Positions 23,818-35,368 of a stretch of 64,000 bases of DNA are shown here, in pieces. A model generated the notes under the pieces. It ran no database searches, was not told the DNA's origin, and saw only the letters and a list, made by a program, of their open reading frames with translations. The DNA is from Bdellovibrionales bacterium (GTDB lineage Bacteria > Bdellovibrionota > Bdellovibrionia > Bdellovibrionales > UBA1609). A program made the position numbers and the translations under genes. Location: positions 64,001 through 128,000 of the forward strand of contig DAHVQG010000002.1 of NCBI GenBank assembly GCA_027317865.1, read 5' to 3'. Each line of letters begins with the position of its first letter. Position 1 is the first letter of the stretch.

Positions 23818-25509
23818 TCACTTTTTAAAGTAGTTGATAAATGCAAGAACAGACAAAACAAGCGCAACTCCGTATTCGGTTGCGCTGAATGCCGGAATGC
23901 CAAGCCACTTCGGGCCGCTCGCACTCACGTTCTGCAGAACTGCAGCGCTCAATAATAAGCTCGCGATGACAAGCCCTAAAAACACGGCATTTGCGGCGTT
24001 GCGCACCGTAAGACGAAACCGCTCAAGTTCGCGAAATTGTATGGGCACCACAAATTCCGGGCTCGAAAACCGGCGGATAAGCTGCTTCATCTGCCTCGGG
24101 AGCACGGCGAGTAGCGACTGCACGTCGCGCCCCAACGTCGAAACGTCACGGATAATTTTGCGCGGCTCACTGCGCGATTGGACTAACTCCGAAGCAAATT
24201 CAAGAGAATAGGCTAGAAAATTAAAATCACCAACCACCATTCGACCCATTCCTTCAATGGCCACAATGGATTTGAAAAACATGATCAATTCGGCCGGCAT
24301 CAGCAGATCGTATTGAGCGGCGATTTCGGTCGATTCTAAAAGGAGTTTACCCACGTTGACGTGCTTCATTGTCAGCCCATAGTACGGCGCTATCAAATCG
24401 CGCAAATCCCGGGCGAACAAATCAACGTCTATGTTTTCCGTGTACGGCGCAAGATCGACGTACTCGTACGCAAGCCGGTCATAATCTTCGCCTGCCAGCG
24501 CGACAAGCATGTTGGCAATTGCCGCCTGAGTTGTCCGGTTCAACCGGCCGACAATTCCAAAATCAATAAGGCCAATGCGGTTATTCGGAAGCACAAACAT
24601 ATTGCCCGCGTGCAAATCCCCATGAAATAGCCCGTCGGTAAAAACCATTTTCAAATAGCATCGAAGCCCCGTTTTAAGAACAGACTCGGGATCAATTCCC
24701 TCTTGTTCAAGCGCATTTTTTTGGCTTAGCGGTTTGCCGTCGAGGGCCTCCATTACCAAAACGCGACGACCCGAATATTCGTTAAAAACATTTGGTATTT
24801 TAATATTCGGTTCACTCGCGAAGTTTTCTTGAAAACGTCGGATGTTATTGGCCTCGATTACAAAATTCGTCTCGAGATCAACCGTGCGGGCGAATTCGTC
24901 GACAACCAAAACCGGGCGAAATACTTTGGCTTCGGGAACATAACGCTCAAGCAGATCGGCCAGCAAATACAACACTCCCAAATCTTCTAACAAAGTTTTT
25001 TCGATGCCTGGCCGCTGGACTTTGACCACAACTCGGCCACCGTGGCGAAGCTCGGCCATGTGAACTTGCGCAATACTACCTGCCGCCCTCGCGTCCAAAT
25101 CGAATTGTGAAAAAATTTTGTCTACAGGAGCGCCGAAGTGACTCACCAAAACAGGTTTAATATCATCAAATGCAAGCGGCTGCACCTGGCTGTGTAGCAC
25201 CTTAAATTCATCAGCATATTCGGTGGGGATCAAATCCGGACGCGTAGCCAAAAGCTGGCCAAGCTTTACAAAAGTCGGCCCTAATTCTTCAAAAGCCAGA
25301 CGCAAACGCCGCGCTGAAGAAAGCGGTTCAATCGTATCGGGATCACGATCCAAAATCTTTTGCTCAGGTAATATCGATTCAAGAAAAGCGAGCTTTCTTA
25401 AACCGACTCGATCGAGAACGTCGCGAAACCCGTACTTTGCCAGTACGGTTACGATGTTTTTCAAACGGACGGCGTTTTGAATCGGACTTCGCTTTATTTT
25501 TCTTCGCAT
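23818..25509 (-). CDS. AarF/UbiB/ABC1 family atypical kinase
   Basis: LGPTFVKLGQLLATRPD, AAGSIAQVH, VVVKVQRP, FHGDLHAGN, IDFGIVG; C-terminal TMs. Confidence 0.92.
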   Translation of the reverse strand: MRRKIKRSPIQNAVRLKNIVTVLAKYGFRDVLDRVGLRKLAFLESILPEQKILDRDPDTIEPLSSARRLRLAFEELGPTFVKLGQLLATRPDLIPTEYADEFKVLHSQVQPLAFDDIKPVLVSHFGAPVDKIFSQFDLDARAAGSIAQVHMAELRHGGRVVVKVQRPGIEKTLLEDLGVLYLLADLLERYVPEAKVFRPVLVVDEFARTVDLETNFVIEANNIRRFQENFASEPNIKIPNVFNEYSGRRVLVMEALDGKPLSQKNALEQEGIDPESVLKTGLRCYLKMVFTDGLFHGDLHAGNMFVLPNNRIGLIDFGIVGRLNRTTQAAIANMLVALAGEDYDRLAYEYVDLAPYTENIDVDLFARDLRDLIAPYYGLTMKHVNVGKLLLESTEIAAQYDLLMPAELIMFFKSIVAIEGMGRMVVGDFNFLAYSLEFASELVQSRSEPRKIIRDVSTLGRDVQSLLAVLPRQMKQLIRRFSSPEFVVPIQFRELERFRLTVRNAANAVFLGLVIASLLLSAAVLQNVSASGPKWLGIPAFSATEYGVALVLSVLAFINYFKK

Positions 25510-27469
25510 TCGTTACTTTTACCCCGCCAGCACGACCAGAGTCGCCTTCAGCCAGCACAAAGTCAACTCGGCCGGTTTCATGGTCAGCGGCGGCGACTTG
25601 AATCCGAACGGAATCACCGATTGCGTAGGTCAGTTTCGATCGTCGACCAACTAGCCGCAAATTATTTTCATCAAATTCAAAATGATCGTGACCCAATTCT
25701 TCAACTCGTATCAAACCATCGACGTCGAACTGTCGCAGGGTCACGAACACCCCAAATTTCGCAACTGAACTGATCAGTCCGTCAAATTCTTGACCGAGGT
25801 GTTTCTGTAAAAAACGTGCCTTTTTTATGGAGTGGATCTGACGCTCGGCTTTAACTGCGCGCTGTTCACAGGCGCTAAGAAATGCTCCGGCATCGTCTAA
25901 ATCTGATGCCGAGATTTTACTGTAACCGCGAATTCCAAGCATCGATTTCACGAGGCGATGCACAATAAGATCGGGATACCGCCGTATGGGCGAAGTGAAA
26001 TGCGTGTAATTCTTAAAACCCAACCCGAAATGACCGACATTTTCGCGGCTATAGCGGGCCTGATTCATCGACCGTAAAGTGAGTATGTTAATTACCGTTT
26101 CTTCAGGACGATCTTCAAATTCCTCTAACGCTTGTGTTATACGCTGAAGAACTCGGGACTTCCCCAGTCGGTTTTTGTAACCGAATGCATCCAAAAAGTG
26201 CTCAAGCATTTCAATCGCCTCGGGTCGCGGTGGCTCGTGAATACGAAACAACGCCGGAATGTTTTTCTCAACCAAAAAATCGGCAACAGCGACATTTGCC
26301 GCAAGCATGAGTTCTTCAATCAGACGATGTGAAAAAATCCGCTCCGCCCGAATGATGTCAACCGGCACGCCCGCATCGTCGAGCTCAATGGTAGATTCGG
26401 GAATTTCAAGATTGAGCGAACCTTCGCGAAAGCGCCTTTCCATCAAAACTCGGGCCAACTCCGCACACGTTTTGATGTTCTGTTGAACCGCATCGAGATG
26501 CGGCGGACACGAACCTTCAATAACCTCCTGCGCTTCACCATAGGTAACACGCGCATGGCTTTGAATCACAGCCTCGTAGAGGCGACAGCCCCCTTTGCGC
26601 TCGCCATGAAATGTAAAATCCATTTCGGCAACCAACGCGAGTCTCGGAACATTCGGCTTGAGCGAGCAAAGTTCGTTGCTCAATTCTTCGGGGAGCATCG
26701 GTTCAACAAAATTAGGAAAATATACGCTTGTGCCGCGATCATAGGCGTCTCTGTCAATTGCGGAGGTCGGTTTGACATATTGACTGACATCCGCGATGGC
26801 AACCCAAAGTCGAAATCCGCCCCCTATTTTTTCAGTGTAAACGGCATCGTCAAAATCTTTTGCCGTTTGCCCGTCGATCGTGACCAATTTTTTGCTTCTT
26901 AAATCTCGTCGGGAGCCAAACTCTTTTTCGTTTACCTCGCGCGGCAGGGTTTTTCGCTCAGCTTGCGCTTCACGCGAAAAATTCATGGGAATATGATGGC
27001 TCGCTAAGACACGCAAATTGTCATTAAGTGGATCTGATACGTCGCCGATCACCCGTTCAACTTCACCGTGAAATCCGCGAACAGAATCCGGATAACTCGT
27101 AATTTTTACGATCACCCATTCTTTATCGAGGACTTTGATTTCTGGCGACCATGTGACATTTAGAGTTTCGCCCCAGCCATGGCTCTCGTCTTGAATAAAT
27201 CCCCGTGACACATTGACGATCTTAAGCTGACCCGTAACAATTTTTGTTTTTCGCTCAATTACATTAATGCGATTCGCTCGCAACCGGTGGTTATCTCGCT
27301 CAATTGAGATTTCGACACGGTCGCTCGTCATCACCCCATTCATCAAATGCTTGGGGACGTAGACGTCGGCCATATCCGCATCGTCCGGTATAAAAAATCC
27401 GTATCCGTCGGGATGCCTTTTGATGATACCTGAGAAATGGCGTGGTGATGTTATCTTGCGGTTTTTCAA
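25379..27469 (-). CDS. rnr: ribonuclease R
   Basis: HPDGYGF cold-shock domain, TIDGQTAKDFDDAV, IEELMLAAN, HFTSPIRRYPDL, S1 domain, basic tail. Confidence 0.96.
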   Translation of the reverse strand: MKNRKITSPRHFSGIIKRHPDGYGFFIPDDADMADVYVPKHLMNGVMTSDRVEISIERDNHRLRANRINVIERKTKIVTGQLKIVNVSRGFIQDESHGWGETLNVTWSPEIKVLDKEWVIVKITSYPDSVRGFHGEVERVIGDVSDPLNDNLRVLASHHIPMNFSREAQAERKTLPREVNEKEFGSRRDLRSKKLVTIDGQTAKDFDDAVYTEKIGGGFRLWVAIADVSQYVKPTSAIDRDAYDRGTSVYFPNFVEPMLPEELSNELCSLKPNVPRLALVAEMDFTFHGERKGGCRLYEAVIQSHARVTYGEAQEVIEGSCPPHLDAVQQNIKTCAELARVLMERRFREGSLNLEIPESTIELDDAGVPVDIIRAERIFSHRLIEELMLAANVAVADFLVEKNIPALFRIHEPPRPEAIEMLEHFLDAFGYKNRLGKSRVLQRITQALEEFEDRPEETVINILTLRSMNQARYSRENVGHFGLGFKNYTHFTSPIRRYPDLIVHRLVKSMLGIRGYSKISASDLDDAGAFLSACEQRAVKAERQIHSIKKARFLQKHLGQEFDGLISSVAKFGVFVTLRQFDVDGLIRVEELGHDHFEFDENNLRLVGRRSKLTYAIGDSVRIQVAAADHETGRVDFVLAEGDSGRAGGVKVTNAKKNKAKSDSKRRPFEKHRNRTGKVRVSRRSRSSRFKKARFS

Positions 27470-27596: not shown

Positions 27597-28364
27597 ATGT
27601 TTGGGAAACGAAAGCTTTCAATAACAGTAAGTGCATCCGTTTTCATTTTGGCAGGGGCAGTTGCGACGGCAGTTGGCTGCAAAGCGAGCGCCACGCCGAT
27701 TAAGAATGAACTGCAATCCGACTGGAGATACATCCAATCCGTTCAAATTAAAAAAATAAGCGAAACGCAGTTACCTTACCAAACGACTTCAATGGGGTAC
27801 AATTACAGTTGTACAACTAGCCCTAACGGAATGTCGCCGGATGAAAATGCACAAGCGGCAAATCCTTTTAGTCTAGTAAACATTTCGCAAATCATAAATT
27901 TTGGCGCCAAGGTTTGGCAGTTTATTAATGACAACACACCCGTGGTATCGGCGCAGACTATGTCAGCTAATGCTCTGCCGAAGGGCACCGTTTGTTGGTA
28001 CGATCTTGAAAATTGGCAACCGCCACGCAGTGACACTTACGAAATCGATTATAAAAACCTATTTGGCATAAATGTCGTACGCCTCGCGTTTAGCCTCATT
28101 TACAGTTACGGGGGCCAATACAACGGGCGCGGCCGTTATCTAATGAATGCGACGGTTCAATATCGCGATTTGCAAGTGGCTTGGGGCGGATTTCATGTTA
28201 ACGCCAACGTTGATGTCCCAACCGTGACAAACATTGGTACCAAACAAAATCCAGTTGCCGGGCTTCAGCTTAATATTCACTGGGTCGTCAAAGGGCTTAA
28301 TCGCATCGAGCGCACCGCGAGCTTTTTCATTGCTGGTGACGGACGCCCGACCAAAGAACTATGA
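27597..28364 (+). CDS. hypothetical exported protein/lipoprotein, beta-rich
   Basis: G-rich RBS; signal/lipobox AVATAVGC; amphipathic helix, then a beta-strand-rich domain. Confidence 0.7.
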   Translation: MFGKRKLSITVSASVFILAGAVATAVGCKASATPIKNELQSDWRYIQSVQIKKISETQLPYQTTSMGYNYSCTTSPNGMSPDENAQAANPFSLVNISQIINFGAKVWQFINDNTPVVSAQTMSANALPKGTVCWYDLENWQPPRSDTYEIDYKNLFGINVVRLAFSLIYSYGGQYNGRGRYLMNATVQYRDLQVAWGGFHVNANVDVPTVTNIGTKQNPVAGLQLNIHWVVKGLNRIERTASFFIAGDGRPTKEL

Positions 28365-31300
28365 CGCTTTCTCAGTCAAAATTTTACTACAAGGTATATT
28401 CGGGCGAAGTCGAGAACTTCGCTCGCGCAATTGTCGGCGCCGATTGATGGCGTCGACGTAGTCGCTGAACGGTTTGCGATTTTCTCGAGCTAAAACCGAA
28501 TTTTGAATCGATTCAAATTGCTGCCCATCTAAGCTGCCATTGTTGCGAATAATAGCGGCAGCAGCGGCGCGAACCAAATCCCAATTCTGTTCGAGATATT
28601 GTCGCGCGAGATTTTCCCCTTCATCTATAAGCTCATTCATTTTTTGCTCGAGCAGTTTTGACTGCTCTGGTGTTAAAACAGGCTCACCGTTATCATTTAA
28701 GCGAATACCCCGCAGCCGCTTATCTAATCCCCACTTAATAAAATAATTCGTGGCGATATTTCGTGCTTGTTCCAAGTCGTTTGAAGCACCGCTGTCTTCC
28801 GCGTAACCCGCCAACGACTGTGCGACTCGACCAGCCATAAGCTGCGCGATCGTCGCTAATGCTCCTTCTCGAGTCATATTTCCCGAGCGTCCGGGCAGCA
28901 AATCGTACCTCGCGTATCCTAAATACATTAAGTCTTTGGCGCGACCACCGCGAATTGTGACGTATTCAAGAACCTTACCGGTGAGCTTGGGGTCATTGAC
29001 GACGGCGTGTCCTGCTTCATGGTAAACAACGGCCATTGCTTCGCGCGCATCCATCAGCATTCGAGTGGAGGCGTGCTCGGTTAGATCAATACGATGCGTA
29101 CTTGTATTTCCGTTTGAGTCGGCGACTTGGGCCACAATTTCAGTTTTTCGTTTTGGCGAGTTTGAAAAACGGTAGGGCTTGAGTCGTCCGTTATCTTTAA
29201 GTTCAAGTCGAACTTTTACGGAGTCAAATCCTTGCTCAGGTATTCCGTGGTCGATCAAGGCGCTGGTTAACAACGAATTTAAACGATGATCCGTTAGATC
29301 GCGAATGCTTCGCCCGCCTTTGTCTTTGCTAAAGAAACTTTCAGCCAACTGTCTGATAAACTGCTCATCGTATTCAACTTTTACCCCTGAATTGTTGGCT
29401 TCATAATGTGAGATCTGTTGGGCGAAAAGTTTTCGCGTTATCGCCTCGGCTTCAGGGCTCAATATCGGCTTCATCAAAACCGAATCAGCCATTCTATTAA
29501 TAAATGCTTGCGGCACACCCGCGCGAAGCAACAATTCTCGTACTCGTTCGCGCGCCTTGTAAGTCTCCCAAACTTTCATGAGCATATCATCAGAGGTAAT
29601 CCCCTGAAACAACTCCTCACCGTCGTTACCCGTGAAGACAAATACATATTTGCTGAGGTCGTACACTTTTCCGTTAACCGGAGACACCCACGTTTTTTCA
29701 TCAACAATGTTATAGAGCTTTTTAAATAACTCGGCTTTGCGAGCCCGGTCTCCGCCACCCATGTTTGATGCTTCGTCAAAAATAATTACGCCGCCATTTG
29801 GATGAGCGATTAGCGCCTCTTCAAATAAGCGCGGCTGATCCGAGCCAATATAACCCGGCTGAACGCCGAGCACTTTGTTGAAATCGGCCTCGTTCTGAAC
29901 CTCACCGAGAGGAATGATAGTGGCTTGATCAATGGAACCGAAACCAGCCTCCGCAATCGCCCTGCCCATTTCAGTTTTGCCGTTGCCCGAAGTTCCAATA
30001 AAAAAGAACGAGGTCGCCCGATCGTTTTCATTTTGCCCGAGTTTTGCAATCAGTGCTTCAGATGCGCTTTTGCCGGCTTCAGTTTGCCCGATCACGCGTC
30101 TGCCAATTACTTCTGGAATGCTTTTTAACTTCGCGACGACTTGCGGGTCATATAGAGGATTTTGGCTCGAGTTTTGCGGACCCAAAAGTTTCACGTCTAC
30201 GTCATGACCTTTAGCGCGTAAATATGTTTTATTCTTATCGCCCTTAAATATTGAAACGACGATTTCTTCGGATTTCTGAGGCTCTTCACCACCGACTTTG
30301 GTGAACAAATTCGTCAAGTGCGTTTTAACTGCGCGTCGTATCTGACGGCCATCATCGTTGGCGGTAAAGTTGGTCAACGCGAGATATTTAACTACTTGAG
30401 GTTCAATTTCAACTTGCAGACCGATTTCTCTCATTTGCCCGACAAAAACATCGGCCTCGTCTTGCGCAATTTTCACCGCAGCTTCGTCTGATAGGGGTTG
30501 CGACAGTAGCCATCCGTCGATTCTGTTTATCACTTCGCGCGGCAACATTTTTCTATCACTTGCTCCTTGCGAAGTTTCATACAGTTCTCGAAGTTCGGCC
30601 GTCGTAACGGTTTCAACTCGTTTTTTAAGCTGCTCGTTCGTCCAATTCTTTATCTCCCGCGGGAATATCTTTTTCGTTCCACGGTTGGAGGTGAGAATAA
30701 TATATAGAAAATTTGCCTTATACTTTGTGCCATCGCCCGCCGTGATTTCGCCACGATCAAGAAGTTCCATGAGGCGCATCCAAATTTCCGGATGCATTTT
30801 GTCCGCCTCATTGATCACAAGTACGCCGTTACCGCCGGTGGCTTTCAGCCATTCGGTTATGGCACCTTTTTGCTGGCCAGCTTGACCCGGCGGCGCACCG
30901 ACAAGTTTATGAAACTCAAAGGAATTCGACATCTGTTGTTGATATTCGGTTCCATCAATCTTGAGCACGTACTTATCAGATCCAAAAATGTCTTTAGCGA
31001 ATTCTTCAGCCGCGTAGGACTTGCCGGTTCCTGACGGGCCCATCATTAGCGCAGTAAAAACTCGCTTAGAAGGGTTCATAAGCGACATTTTGTAAAGATC
31101 CGTGAGCCCATCAATCAGCCGATCTTGTCCGTATATCCTATCGTGAAGTTCGGTTGACAGATTTTTGGCTCGATCTTCGACTTCAGTTAGCCGACCCATA
31201 CCCAAGTTTTTGGGGAGCCATTTAAAATCCGACTGTTGAGGAGCCAGCCAGAATCTTGGAATATCATCGATCGATCGCGCTTTCGAGACAAAAGGCCGAA

Positions 31301-31814
31301 ACCGTTCGTCGATTTGTGTCGCTTCTCCGTTATCATTTAAAAGTTGCTCATAGGTGGCGGTTTGGCCGTCTTCTTTCAAGACCGAAAACAGAAAATATTC
31401 TTTGCTATTAGAAAGCGTCACCCAGCGGCCCGACCATTCCTTAATTTGCGTACCGTCTATACCCAGTTTTTGTAAAATCCCCGCCGAATTGTAGACCCAT
31501 ACCGATTTGCCGCGAATGATGAGGACGTCATTAGGGTTTAATTGCGGCGCCACCTGATCGCGAGCCGCATAGTACGCGCTTTCATTTACCGCCAAAAGCT
31601 TCGGGCGAGCTTTCCACGGAGCGAATTGCTTTACCATTTTCGGATTCTGTCCGTTGCTTTTAACGTAAAGCGCGGAATTTAAATACAAGCGGCCGTGGCC
31701 CAGAAAAACCTGTTTTGTACCATAGTCGATGTAAACTTTTTCTGTTTCAGCCCGCACCTGGTTGCAGCACATGATCGTTACCACAGCTAAGAGTACGGCC
31801 TTCCCCCACTTCAT
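28359..31814 (-). CDS. signal peptide + two ClpA/B D2-type AAA+ modules + FtsH-type M41 zinc protease
   Basis: Start ATG 31814 after a GGGGGG RBS (track start 31850); MKWGKAVLLAVVTIMCCNQVRA; Walker A GPSGTGKS and GTSGNGKT; LVGAPPG and LGVQPGYIG pore loops; YHEAGHAVV; MAGRVAQ; SGASNDL. Confidence 0.88.
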   Translation of the reverse strand: MKWGKAVLLAVVTIMCCNQVRAETEKVYIDYGTKQVFLGHGRLYLNSALYVKSNGQNPKMVKQFAPWKARPKLLAVNESAYYAARDQVAPQLNPNDVLIIRGKSVWVYNSAGILQKLGIDGTQIKEWSGRWVTLSNSKEYFLFSVLKEDGQTATYEQLLNDNGEATQIDERFRPFVSKARSIDDIPRFWLAPQQSDFKWLPKNLGMGRLTEVEDRAKNLSTELHDRIYGQDRLIDGLTDLYKMSLMNPSKRVFTALMMGPSGTGKSYAAEEFAKDIFGSDKYVLKIDGTEYQQQMSNSFEFHKLVGAPPGQAGQQKGAITEWLKATGGNGVLVINEADKMHPEIWMRLMELLDRGEITAGDGTKYKANFLYIILTSNRGTKKIFPREIKNWTNEQLKKRVETVTTAELRELYETSQGASDRKMLPREVINRIDGWLLSQPLSDEAAVKIAQDEADVFVGQMREIGLQVEIEPQVVKYLALTNFTANDDGRQIRRAVKTHLTNLFTKVGGEEPQKSEEIVVSIFKGDKNKTYLRAKGHDVDVKLLGPQNSSQNPLYDPQVVAKLKSIPEVIGRRVIGQTEAGKSASEALIAKLGQNENDRATSFFFIGTSGNGKTEMGRAIAEAGFGSIDQATIIPLGEVQNEADFNKVLGVQPGYIGSDQPRLFEEALIAHPNGGVIIFDEASNMGGGDRARKAELFKKLYNIVDEKTWVSPVNGKVYDLSKYVFVFTGNDGEELFQGITSDDMLMKVWETYKARERVRELLLRAGVPQAFINRMADSVLMKPILSPEAEAITRKLFAQQISHYEANNSGVKVEYDEQFIRQLAESFFSKDKGGRSIRDLTDHRLNSLLTSALIDHGIPEQGFDSVKVRLELKDNGRLKPYRFSNSPKRKTEIVAQVADSNGNTSTHRIDLTEHASTRMLMDAREAMAVVYHEAGHAVVNDPKLTGKVLEYVTIRGGRAKDLMYLGYARYDLLPGRSGNMTREGALATIAQLMAGRVAQSLAGYAEDSGASNDLEQARNIATNYFIKWGLDKRLRGIRLNDNGEPVLTPEQSKLLEQKMNELIDEGENLARQYLEQNWDLVRAAAAAIIRNNGSLDGQQFESIQNSVLARENRKPFSDYVDAINRRRQLRERSSRLRPNIPCSKILTEKAS

Positions 31815-31984
31815 GAAATCCCCCCGGATTAGTCTTTCGCGCCTGAACACGATCCCAAAAATGCTTTATGGCTCTACCACAGCTTTTTCATAAAGTGATT
31901 TGCAACAGTAGAAAATGAAACCTTTACACAATTGCGCTTTTAAATCTGCTTGAGTGAATGGCGCATGTGCGTTAACAAATCAGA

Positions 31985-32983: not shown

Positions 32984-35368
32984 CTATAGCGTAGGATTCA
33001 TCATATTTTTGTTTTCACCGTGCTGTATTGATCCTTCAAAACGTGTTTTTCGGCACGTGATGGAGTTATACGTACAGTTAAGGCGCATATCTGGATATTG
33101 ATTGTGGTACATGCGCTCGGCATCGAAAATTGATTCGATGAATTTTCGGTTAATATTAGTGGTAATTGGATTTCCGTTGATGTCGTGCGGCCAATAATAT
33201 GAAATGGGCGGCACATGGTGCGGCAAATAGAAATCCAATTCAATACTTAGAGACTTCGCAAGATCGGACTGTGGGATAATTGAAGAAATAAATGCCGGGC
33301 CAATTTCTTTAAACAAATCGTCCAGCAACAGGTTTTCAAATGCCGCTTTTCGCTCGTTTGCCGGCAAACTGAGATTTATAACTTCAGTTAGATATTTAGT
33401 AATAAAAAGTAGGTCTCGACAGTAGCGAATCACCCGGACATTTTGTCCGTTTACTCTTGAAAATCCCAAATCAGCAACGCATTGATGTTCGTCTTGCGGT
33501 CGAAGATACATCGGCGTCGATTTTAGCCCCTGTGCCCAACGGACCGTCGTTGCCAGATGACCCATAATAGAATCCCGTAACTGTCGAGGAGTATATCCGT
33601 AATAATGATTTTCTACCGCTTCAAGCCCATAACGATTTAAAAAGTAGCGCCCAGACACGCGCATGGTCGGCAACATTCTTCGCAAATGCAGCAAATTATG
33701 CTTCGCTAAAAATGTCGTGCGCATATCATAAAAAATGCTCGGCGGTAAAATATTATGAAAATATTGAATGACGGCGCGATTGGCTCGATTGGTGTAGTGC
33801 GTCCGCTTAAGCTCATAATAAAGACCCAATGTTTTAAACTCGAGCGGGTCAAAATTTTTATCGGCGTTAAACATCATCACTTCGTCTTGTAACAAATCGA
33901 AATGATAGAAATTAAAGAATGCAGCAGTTTGGTGGCGTGAATAACATTGTTGAAAGATATAGTATTTGTGCTTTAGTTGACCGGCTTTGGTGTCGTAATC
34001 GGTTATCATCCTGTGTTCGCGACAACTTTCTTGCTGCGAAATTTTAAACACCCCGCCTAAGCCGATATGCCACTGAATGGGCGTACTTAAATCCGCGGGG
34101 CTGAACGAATAGTCCGAACCGATAAAATTACGGTCAACGCGTCGATCATTAAACGGCTTTGACACATCTTCGCTGTATAGTTTTTCAATCTTAGTAAGAT
34201 TGTTAATTAGTATTTTTTGAACTCGTTTTTGATTGCTCGTCGGGTCGACTATCTTCCATACTAAATCATTCAATTTGCCGTTTCGAAAAATAAGTGCCTT
34301 GCTGAAGAGATCATCGTAAGCCTTGCGCACTTTGGGATATTTCAAGTTAAGAGTATAATCGGCTAAAAATGCGCCTCTCACTTTTTTGGCATCAATCTGC
34401 AAACCGCCGACATCGTTCAATTTCAATATCGAAAAGCCTACATTTTCAAGCATATGAAAGGGGGTGTATTGGCTAAACCAAGCATCGCCAAAACCGACCT
34501 TATATATTTCTTGCCAATCTTTGGTGCGATCCGCGACAAGGCGAATTCTCGCCATATCGTTTCGCCCCCGAAAAACGTAGACGTCGTATTCGCCCGACCA
34601 CAACTTGCCGACACTCGAATTAAGAAACGCCACGTTGCCGATCGGCAAATAGTAAGAACCTCCAAAGAACAAATTTAACGGCACCTTAAATCGAACTGTT
34701 GTACCGGGCTTAAGCCGATGAAGGAGCACATGGGCATTAACCGGCAAATCGTTGGCGACAAAGTCGACAAGCGGAATTTTGCGGGTATGGGTGGCGTCAT
34801 GGTAGGTCTTAAATAGGCGCCAAAAATCGATTTCTTGATTCGATTGAATCGTTATATCAAGTGGATAATTGTTGCGTAAGACCCAATGTAACGGGCTGAG
34901 CGTTTCGCTCGGAATAAATCCGTCCTCTCTCAAAGTATACCCGTCGATATATGCCGGCGATAATTCAATGCGATCGCGAACTCCGAGCCCAAACGCATCC
35001 AAAACCGTCTTATTTTCGTTTAGCTCATCAACTGAAATATTGGAGTTTTCGACGCTCTTCTCCCCCCACTTATAAAATCGATGTAGCGCTCCGCCCGCTT
35101 GGCGAAATTTTTTCTTTGCTTTCTCATCAAGCTTTTTTAAGTCCGAATTACTGAGATTAATCTCCTTTAACTTCGGCATTTTGCTTACGTTGACAATAAA
35201 CCCTTCAACCCCGGATAGATTGGGGGGCGGAAGCTTATTAGGCTCTTGAAAAAAATGTTGAGCTGATAGCGATTGATCCGTCTGGGCGCGAGCGTAGCTG
35301 ATCGGTTGAACTGTAAAAAATCCAACAATCAATAAAATTATTAAAAGTCGATTGCCATTCAAATGCAC
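32984..35368 (-). CDS. large secreted hypothetical protein
   Basis: 794-aa ORF; GTG after a GGGAG RBS; signal peptide ending ARA; no motif recognised. Confidence 0.7.
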   Translation of the reverse strand: MHLNGNRLLIILLIVGFFTVQPISYARAQTDQSLSAQHFFQEPNKLPPPNLSGVEGFIVNVSKMPKLKEINLSNSDLKKLDEKAKKKFRQAGGALHRFYKWGEKSVENSNISVDELNENKTVLDAFGLGVRDRIELSPAYIDGYTLREDGFIPSETLSPLHWVLRNNYPLDITIQSNQEIDFWRLFKTYHDATHTRKIPLVDFVANDLPVNAHVLLHRLKPGTTVRFKVPLNLFFGGSYYLPIGNVAFLNSSVGKLWSGEYDVYVFRGRNDMARIRLVADRTKDWQEIYKVGFGDAWFSQYTPFHMLENVGFSILKLNDVGGLQIDAKKVRGAFLADYTLNLKYPKVRKAYDDLFSKALIFRNGKLNDLVWKIVDPTSNQKRVQKILINNLTKIEKLYSEDVSKPFNDRRVDRNFIGSDYSFSPADLSTPIQWHIGLGGVFKISQQESCREHRMITDYDTKAGQLKHKYYIFQQCYSRHQTAAFFNFYHFDLLQDEVMMFNADKNFDPLEFKTLGLYYELKRTHYTNRANRAVIQYFHNILPPSIFYDMRTTFLAKHNLLHLRRMLPTMRVSGRYFLNRYGLEAVENHYYGYTPRQLRDSIMGHLATTVRWAQGLKSTPMYLRPQDEHQCVADLGFSRVNGQNVRVIRYCRDLLFITKYLTEVINLSLPANERKAAFENLLLDDLFKEIGPAFISSIIPQSDLAKSLSIELDFYLPHHVPPISYYWPHDINGNPITTNINRKFIESIFDAERMYHNQYPDMRLNCTYNSITCRKTRFEGSIQHGENKNMMNPTL

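Follow-up and report, generated by a model that had tools for sequence, protein, structure and literature searches.

The gene and its domain order

The window analyzed here, a stretch of 64,000 nucleotides (positions 64,001 to 128,000 of contig DAHVQG010000002.1) from the Bdellovibrionales bacterium assembly GCA_027317865.1, carries on its minus strand a gene whose product, hereafter the window protein, joins two AAA+ modules of the ClpB-D2 type to an intact M41 zinc protease in a single chain, behind a predicted export signal. The gene occupies a single uninterrupted open frame (28359..31850, minus strand). Translation probably starts at the ATG at 31814, where a Shine-Dalgarno-like run (GGGGGGA) lies 7 nucleotides upstream, and yields a protein of 1151 amino acids; a database cluster (P0002) is identical to it in sequence and length. 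Along the chain, the gene can be divided as follows.

28359..31814, minus strand: whole coding sequence, 1151 amino acids and stop; alternative GTG start at 31850
31749..31814, minus strand: predicted Sec (type I) signal peptide, residues 1-22, with basic K2 and K5, an uncharged core of 12 residues (6-17) and V-R-A preceding a probable cleavage site ahead of E23
31197..31748, minus strand: family-specific N-terminal domain, predicted all-beta, residues 23-206; no Pfam match, common to 12 members of our local set
30180..31196, minus strand: AAA+ module 1 (ClpB-D2 type), residues 207-545, including D2-small and a three-strand unit at 517-544; matched by Pfam, NCBIfam and structure 4lj4
29079..30179, minus strand: AAA+ module 2 (ClpB-D2 type), residues 546-912, including D2-small and a beta unit at 866-910; ClpV/ClpB D2 profile match at 561-869
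28509..29057, minus strand: peptidase M41 domain, residues 920-1102; matched by PF01434 and FtsH structures

The original prediction, made from the letters of the sequence, had described a single chain in which an intact M41 protease comes after two D2-type AAA+ modules, and this order is confirmed by Pfam, by NCBIfam and by matches to solved structures; the motifs that it quoted are all present at the coordinates it gave. As it had anticipated, a Pfam scan returned AAA_2 (E value, E, of 1.3e-32) and ClpB_D2-small on two stretches each, and then Peptidase_M41 (PF01434), which covers residues 920-1102 and profile positions 2-190 of 191, so that the C terminus scores as M41 (62.5 bits, the gathering score being 29.9). 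Among the NCBIfam models, those of ClpB, ClpV and ClpA match twice, at residues 214-522 and 561-869, each time by their D2 part only (profile positions about 550-850). No Clp_N, D1 or D1-lid match was found in the Pfam and NCBIfam scans of the window protein. AAA_lid_3 (PF17862) is likewise absent from its Pfam matches, the module adjoining the protease matching AAA_2 and ClpB_D2-small. The ClpB equivalog scores 186.7 bits against a cut-off of 1232, with profile positions 554-845 alone matching, and the FtsH equivalog (TIGR01241) scores 64.3 bits against a cut-off of 600, through its protease part (profile positions 407-590, residues 915-1091). The Pfam Torsin model reaches 25.0 bits over residues 211-278, under its cut-off of 27, and the Lon model TIGR00763 gives a weak match only (E 0.072).

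Among solved structures, the D2 domain of ClpB (4lj4) matches module 1 at E 4.5e-27 (97.7 bits), the HSP101 structures 6e10 and 6e11 match the same module at about E 5e-15, and Escherichia coli FtsH matches at E 4.7e-11. In the alignment to E. coli FtsH (7vhp), YHEAGHAVV pairs with YHEAGHAII and SGASNDLEQA with TGASNDIKVA. The two modules are 26% identical to each other (E 5e-15, 61.6 bits). Because module 1 is nearer to the D2 of ClpB (97.7 bits) than to module 2 (61.6 bits), a recent tandem duplication was considered and rejected as the origin of the pair. The architecture recurs in dozens of divergent homologues and is far beyond chance. Searches of PADLOC and PHROGs gave domain-level AAA+ or M41 matches only (PDC-M37B, DolB, phrog_4871 and phrog_30773), which establish membership of neither a defence system nor a phage.

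Contigs from other sequencing runs allowed the locus to be checked independently. The stretch is present in contigs of three further runs of the same mine-drainage study and of one run of a wastewater study. Aligned to the window, these contigs tile the gene and bridge every domain junction with zero indels, joints or loose ends: one (X3 record 11, 30516-31204) spans the junction between the N-terminal domain and module 1, another (X3 record 10, 29436-30485) that between the two modules, and a third (X4 record 13, 28200-29650) that between module 2 and the protease. They carry 36 variant sites within the coding sequence, of which 27 are synonymous and 9 non-synonymous. Since the contigs tile without indel and 27 of the 36 variants are synonymous, the locus is neither an assembly chimera, an outcome that the original prediction had named as fatal to itself, nor a decaying pseudogene. 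We conclude that the gene is genuine and intact and that it evolves under purifying selection. The public runs listed as containing the window stretch include no RNA dataset.

Motor motifs, protease motifs and the predicted export signal

Motif conservation was read from a family alignment of 32 sequences sharing 25-66% identity. The positions on which the argument turns are the following.

31017..31040, minus strand: module 1 Walker A, GPSGTGKS, residues 259-266; G259, G262, G264 and K265 invariant in the 32 sequences
30882..30884, minus strand: module 1 pore-loop position, Q311; ClpB-type D2 modules have a substrate-gripping Tyr here
30807..30812, minus strand: module 1 Walker B position, N335-E336; Asn replaces the usual Asp, E336 invariant
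29973..29996, minus strand: module 2 Walker A, GTSGNGKT, residues 607-614; G607, G612, K613 and T614 invariant
29850..29852, minus strand: module 2 pore-loop Tyr, Y655 in G-Y-I-G; aromatic (Y or F) in 29 of the 32 members
29772..29777, minus strand: module 2 Walker B, D680-E681; D680 invariant, E681 in at least 90% of members
29007..29021, minus strand: zinc-binding and catalytic motif HEAGH, residues 932-936; H932, E933, A934, G935, H936 and A937 invariant in the 32 sequences, aligned with HEAGH of E. coli FtsH
28776..28778, minus strand: D1013 in SGASND, predicted third zinc ligand; invariant, aligned with the Asp of GASND in 7vhp
28389..28391, minus strand: C1142, near-invariant Cys close to the C terminus, tail motif C-x-x-(hydrophobic); present in at least 90% of the aligned sequences

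Both modules had been described as complete, which stands for module 2 and falls in part for module 1. Module 2 is fully equipped, having N730 (sensor 1), R774 (conserved Arg) and R835 (sensor 2) invariant in addition to the residues listed, and thus the complete motif set of an active unfoldase. The D2 domain of ClpB normally has a D-E Walker B and a G-Y-V-G pore loop. In module 1 the Walker B Asp is replaced by Asn and the pore-loop aromatic is lost, and neither change is private to the window protein: the Walker B reads N-E in 23 of the 32 family members, the window protein included, and D-E in the other 9. The pore loop of the window's clade is G-Q--x-G with a two-residue deletion, while G-Y-[ILV]-G is retained in 10/32, all of them deeper-branching long forms. 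Module 1 otherwise has its motifs invariant, namely, T375/N377 (sensor 1), R431 (conserved Arg) and R490 (sensor 2). Since all of the ATPase motifs and the pore-loop Tyr are present in module 2, this module, which adjoins the protease, looks like a working motor and is presumed to be the one that unfolds substrates. Module 1, with a Walker B Asn and no pore-loop aromatic but with the other motifs kept, more probably serves in assembly or regulation, as a tier that binds nucleotide but has lost its grip on substrate.

The protease motifs align to those of E. coli FtsH, in which the Asp of GASND is the third zinc ligand; D1013 is the predicted counterpart in the window protein. Three Cys residues occur in the window protein, at positions 16, 17 and 1142, which leaves C1142 as the sole Cys of the predicted mature protein. 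A Cys located 5-15 residues from the end, in the context C-x-x-(hydrophobic), is found in 58 of 61 family tails. In an oxidizing compartment, C1142 could form an inter-subunit disulfide or contact zinc, both of which are guesses.

The full-length AlphaFold2 model has a mean predicted local distance difference test score (pLDDT) of 80.5, the AAA+ and M41 parts lying at 85-95 (about 85-93 in module 1 and about 85-95 in module 2). It places a small three-strand unit after each D2-small (residues 517-544 and 866-910). Modeled alone, the N-terminal domain is all-beta, with 11 strands and a mean pLDDT of 66. A likeness to beta-propellers was considered for this domain and set aside as weak, the Foldseek matches to TolB and acylaminoacyl peptidase having E values of 1.8e-3 or worse and the VIA matches Z scores of at most 6.5, within noise. 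A search for stand-alone proteins of this domain (residues 23-215 as the query, shorter lengths) found none at E ≤0.01, with low sensitivity for so divergent a domain. In a three-copy prediction, the M41 part packs head to tail with a score of 0.54, versus 0.00 for the best of three controls; agreement between runs is at least 76%, partner pLDDT is at least 77, and copy 3 contacts copies 1 and 2 via two faces. Of proteins solved as pairs, 20 of 30 reach the mark used for this score, as does 1 of 23 solved as single chains. The head-to-tail score may reflect only a likeness to solved FtsH rings.

The N-terminal stretch of about 210 residues, taken as featureless in the original prediction, begins with a conserved segment that has the marks of a Sec-type signal peptide. 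Our export heuristic scores an N terminus as positive when 8 or more consecutive uncharged, mostly hydrophobic residues fall within about the first 45 positions and net positive charge precedes them. Basic residues followed by such a run were found in 42 of 49 family N termini, and a stricter rule, in a run that set aside 12 rows as fragments (some wrongly), retained 40/49. In the same test 1 of 33 controls was positive, these controls being ClpB-type proteins, many of them close kin, and cytoplasmic AAA-M41 fusions. The N termini that fail are mostly truncated gene calls; indeed, the 66%-identical orthologue P0003 was listed without a signal and regained one when its frame (L089) was read from an upstream start. 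In the same genome, the ClpB-like, ClpA-like and two Lon-like proteins have no such N-terminal segment, and the FtsH-like protein shows its usual two hydrophobic segments.

Members that pass carry a net charge of +1 to +5 ahead of the hydrophobic run. Most of their uncharged cores measure 8-20 residues (12 in the window protein), and small residues in an A-x-A-like arrangement follow the core. Lipobox-like motifs occur in two members, F-G-A-C in the in-genome paralogue described below and V-G-A-C in L099. With 19-residue windows and a Kyte-Doolittle threshold of 1.6, no other hydrophobic segment was found in the window protein or in any family member. The charge pattern argues strongly for an N terminus that stays inside with the bulk of the chain outside, and the short cores with their A-x-A-like ends fit cleaved signal peptides better than anchors. 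The window protein would then lose its signal peptide and reside outside the cytoplasm. On the strength of this signal peptide, we predict that the machine acts beyond the cytoplasm of its producer, and the interest of the protein shifts from its architecture to the place where an exported ATP-dependent machine could work.

Family, layouts and likeness to known machines

A word-indexed search returned 31 proteins with the full architecture (66-30% identity, 1054-1482 amino acids), and an exhaustive phmmer search against 1.84 billion representatives gave 176 clusters at 50% identity with E ≤1e-30, the next tier being ordinary ClpB-type proteins. At E ≤1e-40, a match is present in 40 of the 401 genomes of the window's phylum (32 of 337 high-quality genomes and 30 of 203 genera). 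The spread is patchy, one large family having 1 match in 100. One member is named "Oligoflexia bacterium," and among language-model clusters the one nearest to the architecture is most frequent in Bdellovibrionota. The valyl-tRNA synthetase encoded in the window has relatives named as Bdellovibrionales and Pseudobdellovibrionaceae at about 65% identity, which makes three lines of evidence for Bdellovibrionota. A contig scan with the family alignment (pattern [TV][AS][YFI]HEAGHA) was swamped by ordinary FtsH genes, which made it uninformative on other phyla; its two broader matches (L001 and L003) proved to be separate, adjacent FtsH and ClpB-type genes without fusion.

Three layouts can be read from the positions of Walker A motifs. 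The window's form consists of signal peptide, beta N-domain, D2, D2 and M41; a second has D1, D2, D2 and M41 behind the signal peptide; and the third, that of the in-genome paralogue, inserts a helical region between the signal peptide and D1. The beta N-domain and D1 occur together in one member (P0032). We computed a quick maximum-likelihood tree from the part that the forms share (46 rows, midpoint rooted for drawing only), leaving out P0171, P0196 and P0216, in which the module 1 Walker A was not matched by the pattern, and replacing P0003 with the full L089 frame. In this tree, the D1-less forms to which the window protein belongs are one clade among D1-bearing forms (Shimodaira-Hasegawa-like approximate likelihood ratio test, SH-aLRT, 99). 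Since the D1-less clade is nested in this way, the two-module form was probably derived by loss of D1, a direction that depends on the root.

The paralogue (G000:C37:76460-80833, minus strand) has about 1450 amino acids, is 37% identical to the window protein and carries an extra N-terminal helical region and D1, giving D1-D2-D2-M41. It falls in a different clade of the tree and is for that reason no recent duplicate. Two relatives have in-frame stops: one of the window's own genus (G325:C35:76237-79020, L102) has one TGA and one TAG, and another (G332:C82:1786-4449, L099) has one TAA. Some lineages appear to be losing the family, in keeping with its patchy spread.

FtsH is among the closest known systems. 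It and the window protein both have an M41 zinc protease (HEXXH and an Asp as the third ligand) directly C-terminal to an AAA+ motor in a single chain; ring-type self-association of the protease part may be common to both, the three-copy prediction for the window protein being subject to the reservation made above, and threading by pore loops into a protease chamber is presumed for both. However, FtsH has one classical-clade AAA module (PF00004 with AAA_lid_3) and two membrane helices and is cytoplasmic, whereas the window protein has two ClpB-D2-type modules and, in place of membrane helices, a Sec-type signal peptide. With ClpB/Hsp104, ClpA and ClpC it shares stacked AAA+ tiers, both of its modules being most like their D2, and the long-form paralogues of its family keep a D1 as these proteins do. 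It differs from ClpB, ClpA and ClpC in lacking any Clp_N or D1 match and any inter-domain stretch that would fit the coiled-coil M-domain, in having D2 twice, in a protease that is fused rather than a separate ClpP, and in its export signal. Lon embodies the same concept, an HCLR-clade AAA+ motor that shares its polypeptide with a protease and forms a self-compartmentalized hexamer, but its protease is a Ser-Lys enzyme (S16), its AAA+ part is one tier, and it is cytoplasmic.

In eukaryotes, some ClpB-related AAA+ proteins bear signal peptides, enter the secretory route and function beyond the cytosol, namely, HSP101 of the Plasmodium translocon of exported proteins (PTEX) and the torsins. Their compartments contain ATP and they have no fused protease, and the analogy with the window protein is one of location only. 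Also comparable are four proteins with AAA_2, a classical AAA next to the protease, and M41 (P0046, P0061, P0063 and P0065), which likewise join a ClpB-D2-like module and M41 in one chain, but they have no N-terminal hydrophobic segment and are distant from the window protein (E 1e-8 to 1e-13). There are also ClpB_D2-small plus M41 clusters of phages and Bacteroidota, with a single module in 581-722 amino acids and, again, no signal peptide. Proteins of both kinds bear generic names in their sources ("AAA family ATPase," "ATP-dependent Zn protease" and "hypothetical protein"), and we know of no study of either. As judged from these sequences, M41 has been joined to D2-type modules more than once, and the bare idea of the fusion is not unique.

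The architecture had been presented as without precedent. That claim survives insofar as no curated equivalog model reaches its cut-off, and the portions of the literature covered by our searches contain no description of a D2-D2 or D1-D2-D2 chain with M41, a signal peptide and a C-terminal Cys, although supplementary tables of lineage-specific families might list it. It needs amending insofar as the window protein belongs to a family of about 176 clusters and is no one-off. The same portions of the literature contain no mention of an exported AAA+ protease, and a term search within PMC11656739 gave 0 occurrences.

Where an exported ATP-dependent protease might work

Taken together, we consider it somewhat more probable than the contrary that the window protein is an exported, hexameric, FtsH-like ATP-dependent protease of an undescribed Bdellovibrionota family. 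From the N terminus, its chain would comprise a cleavable Sec signal peptide, a beta-rich N-domain, two HCLR-clade tiers of the ClpB-D2 type and the C-terminal M41 protease. The M41 and AAA+ domains would assemble it into a hexameric stacked barrel working like FtsH or Lon, the hexamer and the threading mechanism both being carried over by homology. In this barrel the N-domains would lie on top, where they may select or gate substrates, followed by the ring of module 1 as a nucleotide-binding assembly or regulatory tier, the ring of module 2 and the M41 disc. The motor of module 2 would draw unfolded chains, through its Tyr loops, into the chamber of the zinc protease beneath, and the whole machine would act outside the cytoplasm of its producer.

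Several points weigh against this proposal. Foremost, the periplasm is generally held to lack ATP, so that an exported AAA+ motor would be left with no obvious fuel, which argues for another topology or for a non-hydrolytic role. The export call is built on our own heuristics and on conservation rather than on a dedicated predictor, and the destination of the mature protein is something that we infer from the sequence. The predicted template modeling score (pTM) of the full-length AlphaFold2 model, 0.55, makes its domain arrangement uncertain, and the Foldseek and VIA searches gave no fold assignable to the N-domain. A family present in 40 of 401 genomes is not core to the biology of the phylum. 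No conserved neighbour, either a secretion gene or a partner gene, was found across 21 family loci. Finally, the GspL model of the type II secretion system matches the source genome below its cut-off only.

The lack of periplasmic ATP would be met if the N-terminal segment were ignored or were an uncleaved tether, with the bulk of the chain facing the cytoplasm as a second FtsH-like, membrane-proximal quality-control protease with access to ATP. The intact ATPase motifs of module 2 make best sense where ATP is present, M41 proteases such as FtsH are classically membrane anchored and cytoplasm facing, and the heuristic character of the export call leaves room for such a topology. The segment itself argues otherwise: with a net charge of +1 to +5 before the run, the positive-inside rule puts the N terminus in and the rest out, the cores (12 residues in the window protein) are short for a membrane helix and are followed by A-x-A-like residues, two members have lipobox-like motifs, and there is no second hydrophobic segment to return the chain to the inside. 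We therefore regard a cytoplasm-facing protease as unlikely.

Alternatively, the protein could be exported and its AAA+ tiers could no longer turn over ATP at their place of work. They would then give a zinc protease that needs no ATP a ready-made ring, as a scaffold or a passive platform for binding. Such a scaffold would suit an ATP-free periplasm, and module 1 in the window's clade is already devoid of the Walker B Asp and the pore-loop Tyr. Module 2, however, keeps all of its ATPase motifs and its pore-loop aromatic even between sequences with no more than 25-40% identity, a retention that is hard to explain without hydrolysis and threading, and we hold the scaffold to be rather improbable. 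That the domain fusion is an artefact (an assembly chimera or a fused gene call) or a decaying pseudogene can be given almost no credence: the source genome is a 42-contig assembly, the runs containing the window sequence are metagenomes and two relatives (G332 and G325) have the in-frame stops noted above, but the bridging contigs, none with an indel at any of the three junctions, and the 27 synonymous against 9 non-synonymous variants already contradict it, and the same domain order in a single open frame characterizes the large majority of matches listed for the phylum, as well as about 176 clusters.

Returning to an exported ATP-dependent protease, its fuel might come from elsewhere than the producer. 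AAA+ proteases (FtsH, Lon, ClpXP/ClpAP, HslUV and the proteasome) are, because of their need for ATP, textbook machines of the cytoplasm or matrix, and the phylum Bdellovibrionota includes predatory Bdellovibrio-like bacteria. One possibility, which we put forward tentatively and think unlikely to hold as stated, is that predatory Bdellovibrionota use the family as an ATP-gated weapon or as a tool for feeding, active only on meeting ATP in prey. The barrel would sit idle in the ATP-free periplasm of the producer and be switched on in the cytoplasm or leaking contents of the attacked prey, where it would unfold folded prey proteins and shred them processively. ATP would then be both fuel and a location cue that protects the producer. 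The lone C-terminal Cys could act as a second latch, through an inter-subunit disulfide or as a cysteine switch on zinc. If this were true, the family would provide the first ATP-dependent AAA+ protease working outside its producer cell.

Whichever site applies, the family retains a full ATPase motor and a zinc protease downstream of a conserved export signal, and this raises a sharp question about the source of fuel. Activity in prey would make the machine a novel kind of predation tool and reveal a novel logic for keeping an enzyme latent. Activity in the periplasm would mean that ATP can be had there or that the motor runs in some other mode. Either outcome would be new. For structural biology, the family is new material, in the form of naturally occurring AAA+ stacks of two tiers (D2-D2) or three (D1-D2-D2) joined to M41 in the same chain, with module 1 apparently caught as a motor tier partway through the loss of its threading parts.

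The source genome (2.65 Mb, 99% complete, 42 contigs) also has ordinary ClpB-like, ClpA-like and FtsH-like genes and two Lon-like genes. As to possible exit across the outer membrane, GspK (T2SSK) of the type II secretion system matches above its cut-off, but the same model also matches in 10 of 14 control genomes; the GspK and GspL matches lie about 0.7 kb apart (G000:C39:70947-72031). These matches are a hint at best of a type II secretion cluster that could possibly move folded periplasmic proteins across the outer membrane.

Among the 21 family loci, the only recurrent group of neighbours consists of related large uncharacterized proteins at 6 loci, which we judged too weak a recurrence for a partner. 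They comprise L123:12459-15629 (plus strand), L124:3080-4681 (minus strand) and four further open reading frames (ORFs) in L119, L124 and L129; in L123, the neighbour starts 4 nucleotides after the AAA-M41 gene. Two of the six recurrent neighbours scanned have an FGE-sulfatase (formylglycine-generating-enzyme-like) domain. Such a domain is curious beside a lone-Cys family, but the context of the Cys is not C-x-P-x-R.

In the window, the protease gene stands alone. A Sua5/YrdC-type gene diverges from it, and a 255-amino-acid ORF (27597-28364, plus strand) with a lipoprotein-like start and no Pfam family converges on it, its end overlapping the stop of the protease gene. A 794-amino-acid ORF (32984-35368, minus strand) has a signal-peptide-like start and, again, no Pfam family. 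The surroundings further include genes for a UbiB-type kinase, RNase R and valyl-tRNA synthetase, together with uncharacterized ORFs. The RNase R ORF (25379..27469, minus strand) and the UbiB-type kinase ORF (23818..25509, minus strand) overlap by 131 nucleotides (25379-25509), and the start of the kinase was probably called too far upstream.

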